Part shown: one piece after another, positions 12,162-56,082 of the stretch
How the letters are laid out: each line of letters begins with the position of its first letter
Numbering within the stretch: position 1 is the stretch's first letter
Source of the DNA: an uncultured Acidobacteriota bacterium
Lineage (GTDB): Bacteria > Acidobacteriota > Thermoanaerobaculia > UBA5066 > Gp7-AA6
DNA: 64,000 nucleotides
Direction of reading: 5' to 3'
Assembly: GCA_963764715.1 (NCBI GenBank)
Contig: CAVXTP010000015.1
Coordinates: forward strand, 64,001 to 128,000
The notes under the pieces: generated by a model
Seen by the model: the letters and a program-made list of their open reading frames with translations, nothing else
What the model was told of the DNA's origin: nothing
The model's database searches: none
Made by a program: the position numbers and the translations under genes

Positions 12162-13199
12162 ATGAGCTCGGTGCCGGGAGTGCCCTCCTATCCGGGGTTT
12201 CCGCCGCGGCCGGCGCCGCCGGACCTCTCGACGATCGATCCGCGCCTCGACCTCGAGGCCGCGATCCGGAATCTCAAGCGACAAAAAAATGCAGTCCTGC
12301 TGGCCCACTACTACCAGGAAGAGGCCATCCAGGATCTGGCCGACTTCGTCGGAGACTCGCTCGACCTCTCCCGCCGCGCCCAGCAGAGCGACGCGAAGAT
12401 CATCGCCTTCGCCGGCGTGCGCTTCATGGCGGAGACGGCCAAGATCCTCAACCCCACCCGCAAGGTCGTCCTCCCGGACTACGAGGCGGGCTGCTCGCTC
12501 GAAGACTCCTGCCCGCCGGAGGCCTTCCGGCGCTGGCGCGAGGACCACCCGGGCGCGGTCTCGCTGACGTACATCAACTGCTCCGCCGCCGTGAAGGCGC
12601 TCTCGGACATCATCGTGACGTCTTCGAACGCCGAGAAGATCGTCCGCTCGATCCCCGCCGACCAGGAGATCCTGTTCGCGCCGGACAAGCACCTCGGGGG
12701 GTTCCTGGCGAAGAAGCTCGATCGCCCGATGACCCTCTGGCCGGGCACCTGCATCGTCCACGAGCAGTTCTCGGAGCGGGAGATCCTGAAGCTCAAGGCG
12801 AAGCATCCCGACGCGAAGCTCGCCGCGCACCCCGAATGCCCCGAGGCGATCCTCAAGTACGCCGACCACGTCGGCTCGACGCGCTCGATCCTGAACTACG
12901 TGACGACGGCGCAGTTCCGGACGTTCCTCATCGCAACCGAGGAAGGGATCATCCACCAGATGAAGAAGCTCGCGCCCGACCGCGAGTACATCCCGGTCCC
13001 TCCCGACAACGGCTGCCGCTGCAACGAGTGCCCCTTCATGAAGCTCAATACGCTCGAGAAGCTCTACCTGTGCCTGCGCGACGAGCGGCCCGAGATCATC
13101 CTGCCCGAGGATCTCCGCAAGGCCGCCGAGAAGCCGCTGCTCCGAATGCTCGAGCTTGTCCTGAAACCGGACCGCAGGCGACCTAGGGCCAGTACGTAG
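12162..13199 (+). CDS. nadA: Quinolinate synthase
   Basis: LAHYYQ, GDSL, GVRFMAETAKILNP, AGCSL, YINCSA, CIVH, HPEC, CPFMK. Confidence 0.96.
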   Translation: MSSVPGVPSYPGFPPRPAPPDLSTIDPRLDLEAAIRNLKRQKNAVLLAHYYQEEAIQDLADFVGDSLDLSRRAQQSDAKIIAFAGVRFMAETAKILNPTRKVVLPDYEAGCSLEDSCPPEAFRRWREDHPGAVSLTYINCSAAVKALSDIIVTSSNAEKIVRSIPADQEILFAPDKHLGGFLAKKLDRPMTLWPGTCIVHEQFSEREILKLKAKHPDAKLAAHPECPEAILKYADHVGSTRSILNYVTTAQFRTFLIATEEGIIHQMKKLAPDREYIPVPPDNGCRCNECPFMKLNTLEKLYLCLRDERPEIILPEDLRKAAEKPLLRMLELVLKPDRRRPRAST

Positions 13200-13350
13200 G
13201 GGCGCCCCTTGCGGGCGCCCCCTCCGCCGCGAATCGAGAAGCGGCACCCGCCTCGGCGCGCCGTGAGAGGGCGGGGGCGGTCCGGCCACCGAAGGCAAAC
13301 CCCCAGCAGTAGGAGACGCCGTCCGCAGGACGGCGACAACCCGCCCCTAC
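13196..13350. repeat. GTAG-REP doublet; the second REP carries a nested 64-nt cassette (13279-13342)
   Basis: gtaggggcgccccttgcgggcgccc ... gggcgggggc[ggtccggccaccgaagg...gacaaccc]gcccctac. Confidence 0.85.
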
Positions 13351-20328: not shown

Positions 20329-20341
20329 GGCGCTCCGGTTC

Positions 20342-21219
20342 GTAGGGGCGGGGCTTGTCCCCGCCCTCGCCTTCGCATCGGCGGACCGCGTTCACGACCT
20401 GCGCGAGTGGGCGGCCACGGTCCGACCACCGAAGGTCAGCCCACGGCAGTAGGAGGCGCCGTCCAGAGGACGGCGACAACCCAGGGCCGCCCCTACGACC
20501 GAGAAGGCGCGGCCTCGACCCGCCGCCCGAGGTTCGTAGGGGCGGGGCTTGTCCCCGCCCTCGCCTTCGCATCGGCGGACCGCGTTCACGACCTGCGCGA
20601 GTGGGCGGCCACAAGGGCCGCCCCTACGACCGAGAAGACGCGGCCACGACGCCGCCGCCCGAGGTTCGTAGGGGCGGGGCTTGTCCCCGCCCTCTTCCTC
20701 CCGTCGGCAGACCGCGTTCACGACCTGCTTGAGTGGGCGGCCACAAGGGCCGCCCCTACGACCGAGAAGGCGCGGCCTCGACGCCGCCGCCCGAGGTTCG
20801 TAGGGGCGGGGCTTGTCCCCGCCCTCTTCCTCCCGTCGGCAGACCGCGTTCACGACCTGCTTGAGTGGGCGGCCACAAGGGCCGCCCCTACGACCGAGAA
20901 GGCGCGGCCTCGACGCCGCCGCCCGAGGTTCGTAGGGGCGGGGCTTGTCCCCGCCCTCTTTCTCCCCCTCGGCAGACCGCGTTCACGACCTGCTTGAGTG
21001 GGCGGCCACGGTCCGACCACCGAAGGTCAGCCCACGGCAGTAGGAGGCGCCGTCCAGAGGACGGCGACAACCCAGGGCCGCCCCTACGACCGAGAAGGCG
21101 CGGCCTCGACGCCGCCGCCCGAGGTTCGTAGGGGCGGGCTTGTCCCTGCCCTCTTTCTCCCCCTCGGCAGACCGCGTTCACGACTTGCGCGAGTGGGCGG
21201 CCACAAGGGCCGCCCCTAC
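20342..21219. repeat. Tandem array of six REP doublets (BIME/REPIN-like); unit about 132 bp, units 1 and 5 carry a 64-nt loop insert
   Basis: GTAG starts at 20342, 20536, 20668, 20800, 20932, 21128 (periods 194, 132, 132, 132, 196); lies between convergent genes. Confidence 0.95.
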
Positions 21220-21264
21220 GACCGGGAGGGGCGGCTACAACCCCGCCAGCCGGGTTGGGGCGAC

Positions 21265-52662: not shown

Positions 52663-55600
52663 CTAGCGGAAATCGTGGCTCGGGAGGCGGGCAAACTCGG
52701 GGATCGTCCAGAACTGCTCCGCCCGGACCGACAGCGAGCCGTCCTGCCGCTGGAGCCTGCCCTTGACGACGAGCGCCCCCGACCCGACGACGACGGCGCG
52801 CTGCTCGCGGAAGAGGTCGGGCCGGACGATCGCCTGGAGCATCCCGGTCTCGTCCTCGAGCGTCAGGAAGACGAACCCCTTCGCCGTCCCCGGCCGCTGG
52901 CGCACGATGACCGCGCCGGCCGCCGTGACCCGGTCGCCGTCCCGCTGGCGGCGGAGCTCCGAGGCCGACAGAACGCCCCGGCGCGCCAGCGACTTGCGCA
53001 GGTGCGACAGCATGTGCGGCCCCGTCGTGATCTCGGTCGACGCGTAGTCGGCGCGGGTCTCCTCGATCGGCGACATCTCCGGCAGCGGCGAGGGGTCGTC
53101 CGTCGGGATCTCCGCAAAGAGCGGCCCGGCCTCGCGCGCGACCTTCGCCACCTGCCAGAGCGCGGCCCGCCGCGTCCGCCCGAACGCCGCGAGCGCCCCG
53201 GCGTGCGCGAGGAGCTCGAGCTCCCCGTCGCGCAGGCGGCAGCGGCGGGCGAGGTCGTCGATCGACACAAAGGGCGCCTGCCCCTGCGCGCGCTCGATCG
53301 CCTCTCCCGTTTCCTGCTTCAGGCCCTTGACGAAGCGCATCCCCAGACGGACTCCGCCGCGCTCCCACCGGCACATCCAGCCCGACGAGGTCACGTCGAC
53401 CGGCCAGGCCGGCGTCCCGTGAAGCTGCGCGTCCTTGACGAGCGTGGCCGGGTGGTAGAAGCCCATCGGCCACGCGTTCAACAACGCCGCGAGAAACGCC
53501 GCCGGATGGTGGGCCTTGAGATAAGCGCTCGCGTACGCGATCAGCGCGAAGCTCGCCGCGTGCGACTCGGGAAACCCGTAGAGCGCGAAGGACGTGATCG
53601 ACTTGACGATCTGCTCCTGCGCCTCCGGACCGATGCCGCGCTCGGCCATTCCCTTCCGCAGCCGCGCCTCGATCGCGTCCATCCGCTCGACCGAACGCTT
53701 GAAGCCCATCGCGCGCCGCAGCTCCTCGGCCTCGCCGCCCGTGAATCCCGCCGCGACCATCGCCATCTTCAGGATCTGCTCCTGGAAGAGGGGCACGCCG
53801 AGCGTGCGCTTCAGGATCGGCTCGAGGCAGGGATCCGGGTACTCGACCTTCGCCCTCCCCTGCCGCCGCTCGAAGAACGGCCGGACCATGCCGCCGACGA
53901 TCGGCCCGGGCCGGATGATCGCGACCTGGACGACGATGTCGTAGAAGCACTTCGGAGCGTTCCTCGGGAGCGAGGCCATCTGGGCGCGGCTCTCGACCTG
54001 GAAGAGGCCGACCGTGTCGGCCGCGTTCAGCATCCGGTAGACCGCGGGATCGTCCTGCGGCAGGTGCGCGAGGTCCACCTCGAGCTTCTCGTGGGTCGAG
54101 ATCATCGGAATCGCCTCCTCGATCGCGGCGAGCATGCCGAGGCCGAGCAGGTCGACCTTCACGATCCCGAGATCCGCGCAGTCGTCCTTGTCCCACTGGA
54201 CGACGACGCGCCCCGGCATCGAGGCGGGCTCGAGCGGCACGACCTCGTCGAGCCTTCCCGCCGCGACGACGATCCCGCCCGAGTGCTGGCCGAGGTGGCG
54301 TGGGAGGTTCTGGATCTGCAGAAAGAGACGCAGGAAATGCCGCGCGCGCCGCTCTTCCGGATCGAGCCCCGCCGCGCGGACCTCCCGGGCGAGCTCCTCT
54401 GGCGGATCGCGGATCTCCCCGAAATTCCAGCCCCCGAGCTGCTTGGAGAGCGCGTCGACCTGCTCCGGCGAGTAACCGAGGGCCTTGGCGGTCTCGCGCG
54501 CCGAGGAACGGTCGCGGTAGGTGATGACGTTGGCCGTCATGCCGGCGCCGTGGGGACCGTACTTCTCGTAGACGTGCTGGATGACCTTCTCGCGCTCCAC
54601 CCCCGACGGGAGGTCGAGATCGATGTCGGGCCACTCGCCGCGCTCCTCCGAGAGGAACCGCTCGAAGAGCAGCTCCATCTTCACCGGATCGACGGCCGTG
54701 ATCGAGAGCGCATAGCAGACGGCGCTGTTGGCGGCGGACCCCCGGCCCTGCGCGAGGATGCGGTTCTCCAGGCAGAAGCGCACGATGTCCCAGACGATCA
54801 GGAAGTAGCCGGCGAGATCGAGCTTCTCGATCATCGCGAGCTCCTTCTCGATCTGTGCCTGGGCCTTCGCCGTCAGCGGACGGAACCGCGCGCGGGCGCC
54901 GTTCCAGGCGACCTGGCGCAGGTACGAGGACGGCGTCTCGCCGGGCGGAAGCGGATAGTCCGGGAACCGGTAGCCGAGGTCCGCGAGCGTGAAGTCGAGC
55001 CGGCGCGCGAGCTCGACGGACGCGTCGAGCATTTCCGGCATGTCGGAAAAGAGCCCGGCCATCTCGGCTGAGCCCCGGAAGTGGCGCTCGCGCTGCGCGG
55101 CGAGGAGGCGGCCCGCGCGGTCGAGCGTCGTGTGGTGGCGGATGCAGGTGAAGACGTCGTGGAGCTCCTTGTCCTTCTTGCGCGCGTAGCGCACGCCATT
55201 GGAGGCGAAGAGCGGAAGGCGGAGCCGCCGCGCGAGATCCACGAGCGCCTGGTTGCGCCGCTCCTCTTCCCGGAGACGATGCCGCTGGAGCTCGACGTGG
55301 AGCCGCCCCGGAAAGATCGCGCCGAGCCGCTCGAGCAGCGCCCGCGCCGCGTCCGGCCCGCCCTCCGCGAGGGCGCGCGCCACGGGCGACTCGTCGCCGC
55401 CCGTCGCGACGTGCAGGCCCTCCGCGTGCGCGGCGACCTGCTCGAGCGTGACCACGGTCTCGCCCTTCGGCTTGCCGAGCGCGCCGGCGGTGATCAAGCG
55501 GCAGAGGTTCCGATAACCGGCGCGGTTCTCGACGAGGAGCGTGAGACGGGGGCGGGCGGCCACAAGCCGATCACCAGAGGCAGACCCACGGCCATAGGCA

Positions 55601-56082
55601 ACGCCGGCACCAGCCGGCGGTAACGCCGCCCCTACTCTCCCGTGGTCGTAGGGGCGGGGCTTGTCCCCGCCCTCCAGCGTCACCTCCGCCCCCACGAGCG
55701 CCCTCACCCCTGCGGCCTTCGCCGCCTTCCAGAAGCGCGGCGCGCCGTAGACGCCGTTGCGATCGACGAGCGCGACGGCCGGGATCTCCAGGCGCGCGGC
55801 CTCTTCGACGAGGTCCTCCGGCAGCGACGCGCCGTCGAGGAAGGAAAACGCGGAGGCGGCGCGCATCTCGACGTAGGGGCGCGGCGCCGGCGGCGCGAGC
55901 TTCAGCGCGCGGGGAAAGTCGCGCTGCCGGAGCTTTTCCTTGCGCGCTCCCGCGGCGACGATCAGCGAGAGAGGGTCGGCCTCGGCGTGGCGCCCCCCGC
56001 AACTCGCGTTGCCGACTCCCAGGTTGCGGGACGGCGGCATTTCCGGAGGGCCTCCCGACGGGCGCGTGCGCTTGTCGGCCAC
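52663..56082 (-). CDS. dnaE2: Error-prone DNA polymerase DnaE2 (ImuC)
   Basis: SAFSFLDGAS.PE, GRGSAANS, FERF, PDIDLD, PRHLGQHSGG, YGFPESH, PMGFY, RQRPGTAKG, C-terminal SHDFR. Confidence 0.95.
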   Translation of the reverse strand: MADKRTRPSGGPPEMPPSRNLGVGNASCGGRHAEADPLSLIVAAGARKEKLRQRDFPRALKLAPPAPRPYVEMRAASAFSFLDGASLPEDLVEEAARLEIPAVALVDRNGVYGAPRFWKAAKAAGVRALVGAEVTLEGGDKPRPYDHGRVGAALPPAGAGVAYGRGSASGDRLVAARPRLTLLVENRAGYRNLCRLITAGALGKPKGETVVTLEQVAAHAEGLHVATGGDESPVARALAEGGPDAARALLERLGAIFPGRLHVELQRHRLREEERRNQALVDLARRLRLPLFASNGVRYARKKDKELHDVFTCIRHHTTLDRAGRLLAAQRERHFRGSAEMAGLFSDMPEMLDASVELARRLDFTLADLGYRFPDYPLPPGETPSSYLRQVAWNGARARFRPLTAKAQAQIEKELAMIEKLDLAGYFLIVWDIVRFCLENRILAQGRGSAANSAVCYALSITAVDPVKMELLFERFLSEERGEWPDIDLDLPSGVEREKVIQHVYEKYGPHGAGMTANVITYRDRSSARETAKALGYSPEQVDALSKQLGGWNFGEIRDPPEELAREVRAAGLDPEERRARHFLRLFLQIQNLPRHLGQHSGGIVVAAGRLDEVVPLEPASMPGRVVVQWDKDDCADLGIVKVDLLGLGMLAAIEEAIPMISTHEKLEVDLAHLPQDDPAVYRMLNAADTVGLFQVESRAQMASLPRNAPKCFYDIVVQVAIIRPGPIVGGMVRPFFERRQGRAKVEYPDPCLEPILKRTLGVPLFQEQILKMAMVAAGFTGGEAEELRRAMGFKRSVERMDAIEARLRKGMAERGIGPEAQEQIVKSITSFALYGFPESHAASFALIAYASAYLKAHHPAAFLAALLNAWPMGFYHPATLVKDAQLHGTPAWPVDVTSSGWMCRWERGGVRLGMRFVKGLKQETGEAIERAQGQAPFVSIDDLARRCRLRDGELELLAHAGALAAFGRTRRAALWQVAKVAREAGPLFAEIPTDDPSPLPEMSPIEETRADYASTEITTGPHMLSHLRKSLARRGVLSASELRRQRDGDRVTAAGAVIVRQRPGTAKGFVFLTLEDETGMLQAIVRPDLFREQRAVVVGSGALVVKGRLQRQDGSLSVRAEQFWTIPEFARLPSHDFR
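55554..55672. repeat. REP doublet with nested cassette, inserted in frame in dnaE2
   Basis: gggcggccacaag[58 nt]gccgcccctac-12 nt-gtaggggcggggcttgtccccgccc. Confidence 0.9.

Follow-up and report, generated by a model that had tools for sequence, protein, structure and literature searches.

A 59-nt gene-less, REP-like repeat in the loops of REP hairpins and tRNA copies of acidobacterial genomes

Introduction

Several classes of mobile DNA move through a single strand and leave characteristic traces at their ends. IS200/IS605 elements have hairpins at both ends and insert strand-specifically 3' of a short target, which is retained and not duplicated. IS91/ISCR elements and Helitrons have a defined 5' end and a hairpin a few bases before the 3' end, lack inverted repeats and target duplications, use a short specific site, and occasionally carry a 3' flank along or form tandem arrays. 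To our knowledge, every described member of the rolling-circle HUH elements is far larger than the repeat considered here.

Among gene-less repeats, the closest described systems are the GTAG-tagged REPs and REPINs with their RAYT (TnpA-REP) proteins (Bertels & Rainey, 2011, PMC3116915; Di Nocera et al., 2013, PMC3733652), and the latter account places REPs sometimes in frame inside ORFs, error-prone polymerase genes included. The same paper mentions Rickettsia palindromic elements, small repeats that are tolerated in frame inside protein genes. REPs are themselves targets of insertion sequences, of which Tobes & Pareja (2006, PMC1525189) list IS1397, ISKpn1, IS621, ISPpu9/10 and ISPsy8, elements of 1-2 kb that bring their own transposase of the IS3, IS110, IS4, IS256 or IS5 families. 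Finally, a long type of Y1 protein, subclass 2.1/TIRYT, is known from Acidobacteria (Quentin et al., 2018, PMC6006769), and the part of that paper which deals with this subclass describes no REP-like sequences around its genes.

Here we describe a repeat that shares features with each of the single-strand systems and lodges in REPs, tRNA copies and itself.

Copies in the window and their host repeats

The window, that is, the whole stretch of 64,000 nt that was analysed, spans positions 64001-128000 of contig C15 of an uncultured acidobacterial genome, G000 (4.36 Mb, 26 contigs, 70% G+C). An earlier note had described a cassette, here labelled E (about 59-61 nt), at 13279-13342, 20419-20482, 21010-21073 and 55567-55624, each time in the loop of an inverted GTAG-REP, and all four positions and settings were confirmed. 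A degenerate 40-nt pattern over the conserved part of E has four matches in the window, exactly at these sites, versus none in 100 dinucleotide-preserving shuffles. The copies and their surroundings are as follows.

13196..13221, + strand: forward partner REP (gtagggg...) of the REPIN hosting the 13279 copy; the same pair is found in the related genome G025
13269..13278, + strand: left arm of the host REP of the 13279 copy, gggcgggggc
13279..13342 (core 13282-13340), + strand: E copy of the 'GGT...CAACCC' subfamily, in an inverted-REP loop
13341..13350, + strand: right arm and CTAC tail of the host REP of the 13279 copy, ccgcccctac
20419..20482 (core 20422-20480), + strand: E copy in a tandem REPIN array, inside the REP loop of one unit
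20483..21009, + strand: four empty array units with a period of 132 and the same REP, gggcggccacaagggccgcccctac; paralogous empty sites
21010..21073 (core 21013-21071), + strand: E copy in the tandem REPIN array, inside the REP loop of another unit
52663..56082, - strand: DNA polymerase III alpha-type ORF, 1139 aa, whose PHP domain carries the REPIN and E
55554..55566, + strand: left arm and loop of the host REP of the 55567 copy, gggcggccacaag; E follows directly after 'aag'
55567..55624, + strand: diverged 58-nt E copy in a REP loop, inside the ORF on the opposite strand
55625..55672, + strand: right arm (gccgcccctac) of the host REP of the 55567 copy, a 12-nt spacer and the forward partner REP, gtaggggcggggcttgtccccgccc

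The relationships among the copies are also as first described. The two array copies, 20419 and 21010, are identical (64/64), the 13279 copy differs from them at nine of 64 nt (85.9% identity), and the inverted host REPs are of two subtypes, one occupied by the 13279 copy and the other, with arms gggcggccac and agggccgcccctac, by the array copies. The 55567 copy lies in frame within the polymerase III alpha-type ORF, read on the opposite strand; the Pfam domains of this 1139-aa ORF are PHP (74-268), DNA_pol3_alpha, finger, HHH_6 and OB. As a side observation, the codon position of this site in the polymerase ORF is occupied by a different small repeat in every species examined.

Family size and distribution

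The count of four copies given in the earlier note is right for the window but not for the genome, in which an iterated nhmmer search yields 61 matches, including 50 over the full length. These 50 copies served to build a covariance model, which has matches in all 36 species sampled from the genus, between 1 and at least 92 per genome. In a family-wide draw, E is present in all 43 genomes of the genus and in 26 of 61 genomes of eleven other genera of the family, there always in few copies; the covariance model did not find it in 24 genomes of two sister families of the same order. An exact 28-nt core of E occurs at 89 loci in a collection of species-representative genomes, and among the matches listed, 80 of 80 are MAG records of Acidobacteriota/Thermoanaerobaculia.

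Rfam returned no match at gathering score across the window and, across ten E-bearing loci, no family on the element at an E-value of 1 or below, the sole overlap being a chance-level miRNA model (0.053). No description of an element of this type was found in the literature searched; supplements may hold catalogues of Acidobacteria repeats. Among sequencing runs, none contained half or more of the sampled words (the best share was 0.19), and there was no RNA run among the matches listed.

Anatomy of the element

The E consensus opens with a 5' box (CCGNCCACC-RRM-GG..CC.C.G), usually followed by GTAGG; 3 nt further on comes a hairpin, and GGTAAC closes the element. The box, conserved and non-palindromic, is 27 nt long, and the REP-like module that follows usually consists of a GTAG tag, 4 nt, and a stem of 8-10 bp of free but compensated sequence. 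The element starts with CCGNCC and ends with GGTAAC, and has no terminal inverted repeats.

From the window copies it had been proposed that the 3' hairpin keeps its pairing while its sequence changes, and the larger alignment bears this out. Across 95 distinct copies, 98.5% of cells are paired versus 81.2% after shuffling, and six of the seven pairs show double-sided changes, amounting to 110 cells, which was matched by none of 500 shuffles. Two more outer pairs of this hairpin covary between A-T and G-C around a frequent mismatch. GTAG stands before the hairpin in three of the four window copies, as reported, in 31 of 48 distinct copies from the genome and in 71 of 89 distinct copies of the wider set, at a distance of 4 nt from the stem. 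The hairpin loop takes the form C-GNA-G in 65 of 89 distinct copies, with the GTAG tag and the GNA triloop both on the E strand.

The 5' hairpin of the earlier note (acc..ggt changing to gcc..ggc) can be read literally in the window copies but is not a property of the family: of 48 distinct copies, 32 leave its pair 4-16 unpaired, and the hairpin was rejected because its pairing, 75.0%, equals that of the shuffled controls (74.9%), 289 of 500 shuffles scoring as high. For the same domain, RNAalifold draws an alternative helix on the opposite strand, with variation that is mostly G-C to G-U. This helix, too, was rejected, at 95.7% paired versus 95.3% shuffled and three double changes; in its fifth pair, A is matched with T, by eye, in five of nine A-bearing copies. 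Given that only the 3' hairpin beats its controls, E is one covarying hairpin joined to a sequence-conserved box.

Landing sites

Targeting of REP loops, as originally suggested, applies to about half of the family. REP arms flank 30 of the 61 copies in G000, although one of the 30 (C11:8802) is by eye not a REP. The remaining 31 of 61 lie elsewhere; copies found mostly outside REP loops had been named in advance as evidence against the idea, and this fraction touches that point. In the REP-flanked set, the exact tail CCGCCCCTAC lies downstream of E in 24 of 30 copies, with one-base variants in the rest, whereas GTAGGGG is directly upstream in none of the 30. As the tail is always downstream and GTAGGGG never directly upstream, the orientation of E relative to its host REP is fixed. 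When the host REP is read in its own direction, E appears reverse-complemented, precisely at the border of 5' arm and loop (GTAGGGGCGGGG^CTTGT...), and at some REPs (C6:270758, C21:137843) the insertion is a clean addition of 59 nt without loss or duplication. A strict pattern finds about 203 short REP hairpins in the G000 genome; thus, a few hundred 5-nt loops hold half of all E.

A second group of landing sites is provided by tRNA genes and their partial copies. E adjoins all four tRNA-Ser genes and also occurs near tRNA-Arg, tRNA-Gln and tRNA-Ala genes. The T-loop has been hit in partial copies of tRNA-Ser(CGA) and tRNA-Ser(GCT) in G000, in one of tRNA-Ser(GGA) in the related genome G024 and in tRNA-Ala repeats, with the entry point at position 5|6 of the 7 nt. 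In copies of tRNA-Ser(GGA) and tRNA-Ser(CGA), E enters the anticodon loop at 36|37, and in relatives the D-loop of a tRNA-Ser(UGA)-like copy is occupied. Elsewhere, E lies just after genes for SLH/TIG/beta-helix surface proteins or within their last ten codons. It is co-oriented with the tRNAs and antisense to the SLH genes, and its orientation relative to neighbouring genes overall is mixed, as judged from crude GC3-based gene calls.

E is also found inside other small repeat families and inside itself. Nesting of E in E takes place at two fixed sites, GTAGGGA^ACGC and CCACCGA^(AG)GCAG, with at least seven instances across G000 and its relatives, and in some copies the loop of the 3' hairpin contains a further small hairpin. 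Most E landing sites are short loops of sequences able to fold as single strands, and in the loops of REPs it is the 3' side that is used. Outside REPs, the flanks are complementary in 5 of 59 copies, against a mean of 4.1 in a control of mismatched flank pairs, and therefore a position inside a hairpin is not a universal rule.

Junctions

The 5' edge of E is uniform. Among the 59 copies that the script did not class as REP-flanked, the most frequent bases ahead of CCGNCC are G at position -3 (78%), A at -2 (86%) and G at -1 (68%), and in 90 core-exact copies from other genomes the most frequent left trinucleotides are GAG (36), GAC (13) and CAG (12). Known empty targets read TTCGA|AT, CTCGA|AA, TTGGA|AA, GGGA|ACGC, CCGA|AGG and GATGA|AGA, from which it follows that E enters after GA and brings one extra G or C with it. 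REP targets read ACAA|G or ACGA|G; across targets, the 5' end of E directly follows a purine-A dinucleotide, mostly GA.

The 3' edge is variable, with GGTA at T-loop insertions, GGTAAC at REP insertions and GGTAAC plus C in nested copies. Many non-REP copies share a 3' extension (TCGAATG or TCGCATG, and beyond), and one to three target bases are often lost. There is no regular target duplication, flanking duplications being absent in REPs and 15 to about 58 nt long elsewhere. At insertions into genes and tRNAs, an intact copy of the interrupted segment, corresponding to the duplicated 15 to about 58 nt, is always nearby. Short tandem duplications thus accompany the tRNA and SLH insertions, so that one intact gene copy survives beside the broken ones.

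Filled and empty sites

Seven independent comparisons of filled and empty sites, of the kind that the earlier note had proposed for REP junctions, could be made; both orthologous and paralogous empty sites exist. The REPIN of the 13279 locus has an orthologue in G025 in which the same REP is empty, GGGCGGGGACGAGCCCCGCCCCTAC, and in two other relatives (G003 and G015) no repeat is present between the same genes. At the 55567 locus, the REPIN is shared by two relatives (G030 and G035), in both of which its REP is empty; the stretch compared is 229 nt long in G000 and, at 172 nt, shorter by 57 nt (19 codons) in G035. The REPIN array of the window combines four empty and two filled units, the four empties separating the filled ones.

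The tRNA loci offer comparable pairs. In a tRNA-Ala array on contig C20, one T-loop is intact (TTCGATC), and in two repeats E stands behind TT(T)CA. Most species have a simple tRNA-Ser(GGA) locus, and about eleven have there one to four tandem units of the form [promoter + tRNA nucleotides 1-36 + G + E + TCGCATG + spacer]. At tRNA-Ser(CGA), about twenty species show a simple locus, and eight carry, after the gene, [variable-arm-like hairpin + T-stem + E + T-stem + acceptor end]. For one further site, G000 has the empty form and four relatives the filled one. The occurrence of filled and empty forms of the same site, both between species and between neighbouring units, shows that E is mobile.

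Candidate enzymes

Searches for Y1 HUH proteins gave five matches in G000. One is a RAYT of 172 aa (C17:16419-16937), three are proteins of the long type (320-336 aa; C6:495300-496274, C4:28583-29593 and C7:33483-34445) and a further match is a fragment. A RAYT gene flanked by the cassette, which had been suggested as something to look for, is not what the genome holds: the flanks of the RAYT gene are ordinary GTAGGGGCGG.. REPs, and the nearest E is 2.4 kb away. No Y1 gene of G000 is bracketed by E or by E halves, nor were gene-separated E halves that could represent an autonomous parent found in this genome, the split halves found there being explained by nested E.

Across genomes, RAYT and Y1 genes do not track E, and the RAYT link that had been suggested for the cassette is not supported. 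Of 37 genomes of the genus, nine yielded a RAYT orthologue with at least 50% identity, which is interrupted in three; absences from MAGs are soft. Among 36 genomes of the genus, 24 have a Y1_Tnp match of some kind, and so do 11 of the 24 outgroup genomes without E; the E-rich G005 (at least 92 matches; 94% complete) and G035 (68 matches; 89% complete) gave none. Incompleteness of the MAGs weakens this mismatch between Y1 and E but does not remove it.

The IS110 transposase (DEDD, PF01548) has no match in G000, which is 96.8% complete, and controls matched in seven of 14 genomes; a reverse transcriptase was likewise not found in this genome; and Y2_Tnp (PF04986) has no match in G000, the control genomes being equally silent. 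Among the enzymes searched, no mobilising enzyme is tied to E.

Comparison with described systems

Like GTAG REPs, E is short, gene-less and present in many copies, with GTAG upstream of a GC-rich covarying hairpin, and it is mostly intergenic and sometimes in frame inside ORFs, including a polymerase gene. However, GTAG REPs are palindromes of 20-40 bp with GTAG at the foot, whereas E has 59 nt, its GTAG stands 4 nt off the stem and the tag is missing in 17 of 48 distinct copies. Unlike the repeats of REPtrons, E does not flank the RAYT gene and is abundant where no RAYT was found, and unlike REPs, it inserts into REPs and forms no REPIN doublets.

The resemblance to IS200/IS605 lies in the lack of inverted terminal repeats and of regular duplications, the subterminal hairpin, and the strand-specific insertion 3' of a short conserved target that is kept as the left flank; the host genome also resembles IS200/IS605 carriers in possessing Y1 HUH genes, including the long subclass 2.1/TIRYT type. 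By contrast, E has one supported hairpin rather than two, a target of about 2 nt rather than a tetra- or pentanucleotide, imprecise 3' joints, no tnpA-bearing parent in G000, and Y1 genes that do not co-vary with it. With IS91/ISCR elements and Helitrons, E shares the sharp 5' end, the hairpin near the 3' end, the lack of inverted repeats and of a regular target duplication, the short insertion site, the donor 3' flank and the tandem units, but no Y2/Helitron-type gene was found, although the controls of the Y2_Tnp search were silent.

As in the REP-targeting insertion sequences covered by PMC1525189, insertion is specifically inside REP palindromes, and the REP can be rebuilt from the two flanks; relative to the elements in that account, E is gene-less, one-twentieth of their size and directed at a wider set of loops, including those of tRNA copies and its own. 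Rickettsia palindromic elements are an unrelated sequence family from a different phylum, and the mention of them in PMC3733652 describes no targeting of repeat loops or tRNA loops. E further differs from classical MITEs in having neither terminal inverted repeats nor a target-site duplication of fixed length, and from a module mobilised by IS110 (ISPpu9-like) in that no IS110 transposase was found in G000. By analogy, E appears to work most like a REP or an IS200-type single-strand element, the closest of these systems.

How the element may move

Copy-number swings, empty sites, the fixed orientation in REPs, the GA junction, self-nesting and lineage restriction together indicate that E is mobile, non-autonomous DNA. 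The suggestion of a non-autonomous element targeting REP loops is thereby upheld in substance, by the empty sites, the fixed orientation, the share of copies lodged in the roughly 203 REP loops and the lack of an Rfam match. The reading that we favour, with a probability of roughly 0.6, sees in E a REP-like, non-autonomous element that would be moved, in the form of single-stranded DNA, by an HUH-type enzyme. A nick-and-join enzyme of this kind, acting in trans, would cut at the GA|N junction and may use the 3' hairpin as its handle, in the manner of IS200/IS605, REP/RAYT or rolling-circle elements. The architecture is HUH-like in that the ends are not inverted, GA is kept as the left flank and a subterminal GTAG/GNA hairpin lies on one strand; in addition, the donor 3' flank is sometimes carried along, and an end-to-start joint occurs within the tandem units. 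The preference for loops of foldable sequences would likewise make sense if the intermediate were single-stranded. Against HUH-mediated movement stand the 3' joints, which are not base-precise, untypical of IS200/IS605; furthermore, the GA target alone is too short to explain the choice of sites.

The imprecision of the 3' joints and the local duplications fit template switching almost as well as an HUH step. E could accordingly spread without an enzyme, by template switching or microhomology-mediated copying at hairpins, a route that we consider unlikely on balance: a polymerase would stall at a folded loop, its 3' end (..GA) would re-anneal at the GA before another E, and E with a variable stretch of donor flank would be copied before the return to the original template. 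Junctions that vary by 1-3 nt, short identities (GA, A, C) at both joints, a sloppy 3' boundary with donor flank (TCGAATG..), tandem duplications of 15 to about 58 nt that accompany insertions locally, and the lack of any enzyme (RAYT, Y1) that co-varies with E are all in keeping with such copying. So is the arrangement in two relatives (G006 and G011), which have E or a remnant of it about 55 nt upstream of tRNA-Ser(GGA) and no broken half; a back-switch from there would yield the observed tandem unit. Yet the 5' boundary is uniform in nearly all copies, which microhomology of 2-3 nt cannot specify, the orientation in REPs is fixed, the 5' box is conserved family-wide while neighbouring spacers diverge, and some REP insertions are exact 59-nt additions without loss.

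Conservation of the box across genera and the strong covariation of one hairpin would also be expected of a functional structured RNA, such as a 3'-end, processing or stability element or a protein-binding motif, kept by selection and copied to many transcripts. Transcription is probable for several copies, given their position next to tRNA genes or just behind SLH genes, and the second helix drawn by RNAalifold on the opposite strand varies mostly from G-C to G-U. That helix, however, has no support beyond conservation (95.7% versus 95.3% in shuffles), no Rfam family matches even at an E-value of 1 or below, the number of matches swings from 1 to at least 92 per genome between species, and orientation relative to genes is mixed, with the tRNAs and antisense to SLH; copies also lie inside an ORF, in broken tRNA copies and in each other. 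An exclusively RNA-level function is less likely because of these mixed orientations, the in-ORF and self-nested copies and the failure of the second helix, and we regard RNA function as the main role of E as improbable. The tRNA landings invite yet another reading, as integrases that target tRNAs classically cross over in the T-loop or the anticodon loop: E might be a relic or component of the attachment sites of a tyrosine recombinase that slots cassettes into tRNA loops, with the REP copies as off-target events. E indeed occupies the T-loop of tRNA-Ala 3'-end repeats that bracket carbonic anhydrase and cupin cassettes, but one repeat of the array has an empty T-loop and is otherwise the same, so E is dispensable for these repeats; half of all copies lie in REPs, remote from any cassette, and E nests in itself. 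We give this origin a very slim chance.

Implications

REP-like, gene-less repeats are among the least understood mobile DNAs, since new insertions and empty sites are rarely caught. In the E family, natural pairs of filled and empty sites are plentiful, the 5' junction is sharp, copies nest in one another and several distinct kinds of loop are targeted in a single lineage, and these features make the choice of hairpin loops directly testable. Tentatively, and at odds that we put well short of even, E might be the first clear example of a bacterial 'loop-homing' micro-element that is independent of the known transposase families and relies on an unrecognised enzyme or on copying at folded single strands; its landings in tRNA loops would then create tandem arrays of tRNA halves and possibly the arrays of tRNA-end cassettes.

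For genome annotation, E matters in that it breaks and duplicates tRNA genes, giving rise to arrays of tRNA halves, adds 19 codons to a DNA polymerase gene and lies between genes for surface proteins; in MAGs, E-bearing loci will be misread by gene-finding and tRNA-scanning programs. If no known transposase is responsible, the family would point to a new route of mobilisation for E.

In-frame repeat insertion in a DNA polymerase gene

Two loci in the window illustrate how E, the ~59-nt gene-less mobile cassette, is housed in doublets of forward and inverted REPs (REPINs):

window 20330-21230, tandem array of REPIN units with a period of 132
window 52663-56082, minus strand, DNA polymerase III alpha-type gene with an in-frame REPIN plus E in the PHP domain (insert 55554-55672)

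In the array, two E-filled units of ~195 nt each enclose four empty ones. In the polymerase gene, every species of the genus that we examined carries a different small repeat at the identical codon position, namely, a REPIN, the GTCATCCCGAG.. palindrome or the CCCTCTCCC hairpin. This position is an insertion hot spot for in-frame repeats, and in this respect resembles the DnaE2 genes with REP tags that Di Nocera et al. 2013 (PMC3733652) mention.

Other host repeats and nested insertions

The lineage contains two more abundant families of small repeats, both of which host E (loci L135, L137, L139, L141, L145, L146, L151 and L152, among many others): a large palindromic element, which starts with GTCATCCCGAGCG..GGGATCCC, and a hairpin, CCCTCTCCC..GGGTGAGGGG. 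The palindromic element and a copy of E seem to have spread jointly, as a composite. E itself also receives inserts, with a further small hairpin found in the loop of its 3' hairpin in the following copies:

L217, L225, L235, L253 and L267, E copies with the extra hairpin
G000 (the genome under study) C21:252752-252802, E copy with the extra hairpin

Where such an E copy lies inside a REP or another repeat, nesting reaches three levels.

Repeats associated with tRNA and surface-protein genes

G000 C20:20848-22600 (L278), tRNA-Ala(GGC) with downstream repeats
L100 (G017:C2:1344244-1344925), L099 and L101, tandem tRNA-Ser(GGA)/E units in relatives
L107 (G023:C4), second copy of tRNA-Ser(GGA)
G000 C21:318000-394000, 75-kb region with many paralogous SLH/TIG/beta-helix surface-protein genes

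At L278, each downstream repeat closes with the 3'-terminal 28 nt of the tRNA, and the intervening cassettes carry genes for a carbonic anhydrase of the alpha type and for a cupin. At L100, L099 and L101, the intact tRNA-Ser(GGA) is preceded by one to four tandem units, each consisting of a promoter, the first 36 nt of the tRNA and E; the units are near-identical inside one genome, and their spacers differ strongly from species to species. At L107, a heavily truncated E takes the place of the tRNA segment that runs from the anticodon loop to the T loop. Between the surface-protein genes lie copies of E and short duplicates of gene 3' ends.

The RAYT gene in related genomes

Orthologues of the RAYT gene, which encodes a Y1 HUH tyrosine transposase, are interrupted in three relatives:

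G003:C9:32852-33355
G030:C60:53412-53921
G011:C4:574759-575222

Because these orthologues contain an in-frame stop or are split into two pieces, their state suggests that the RAYT gene is decaying in parts of the genus.
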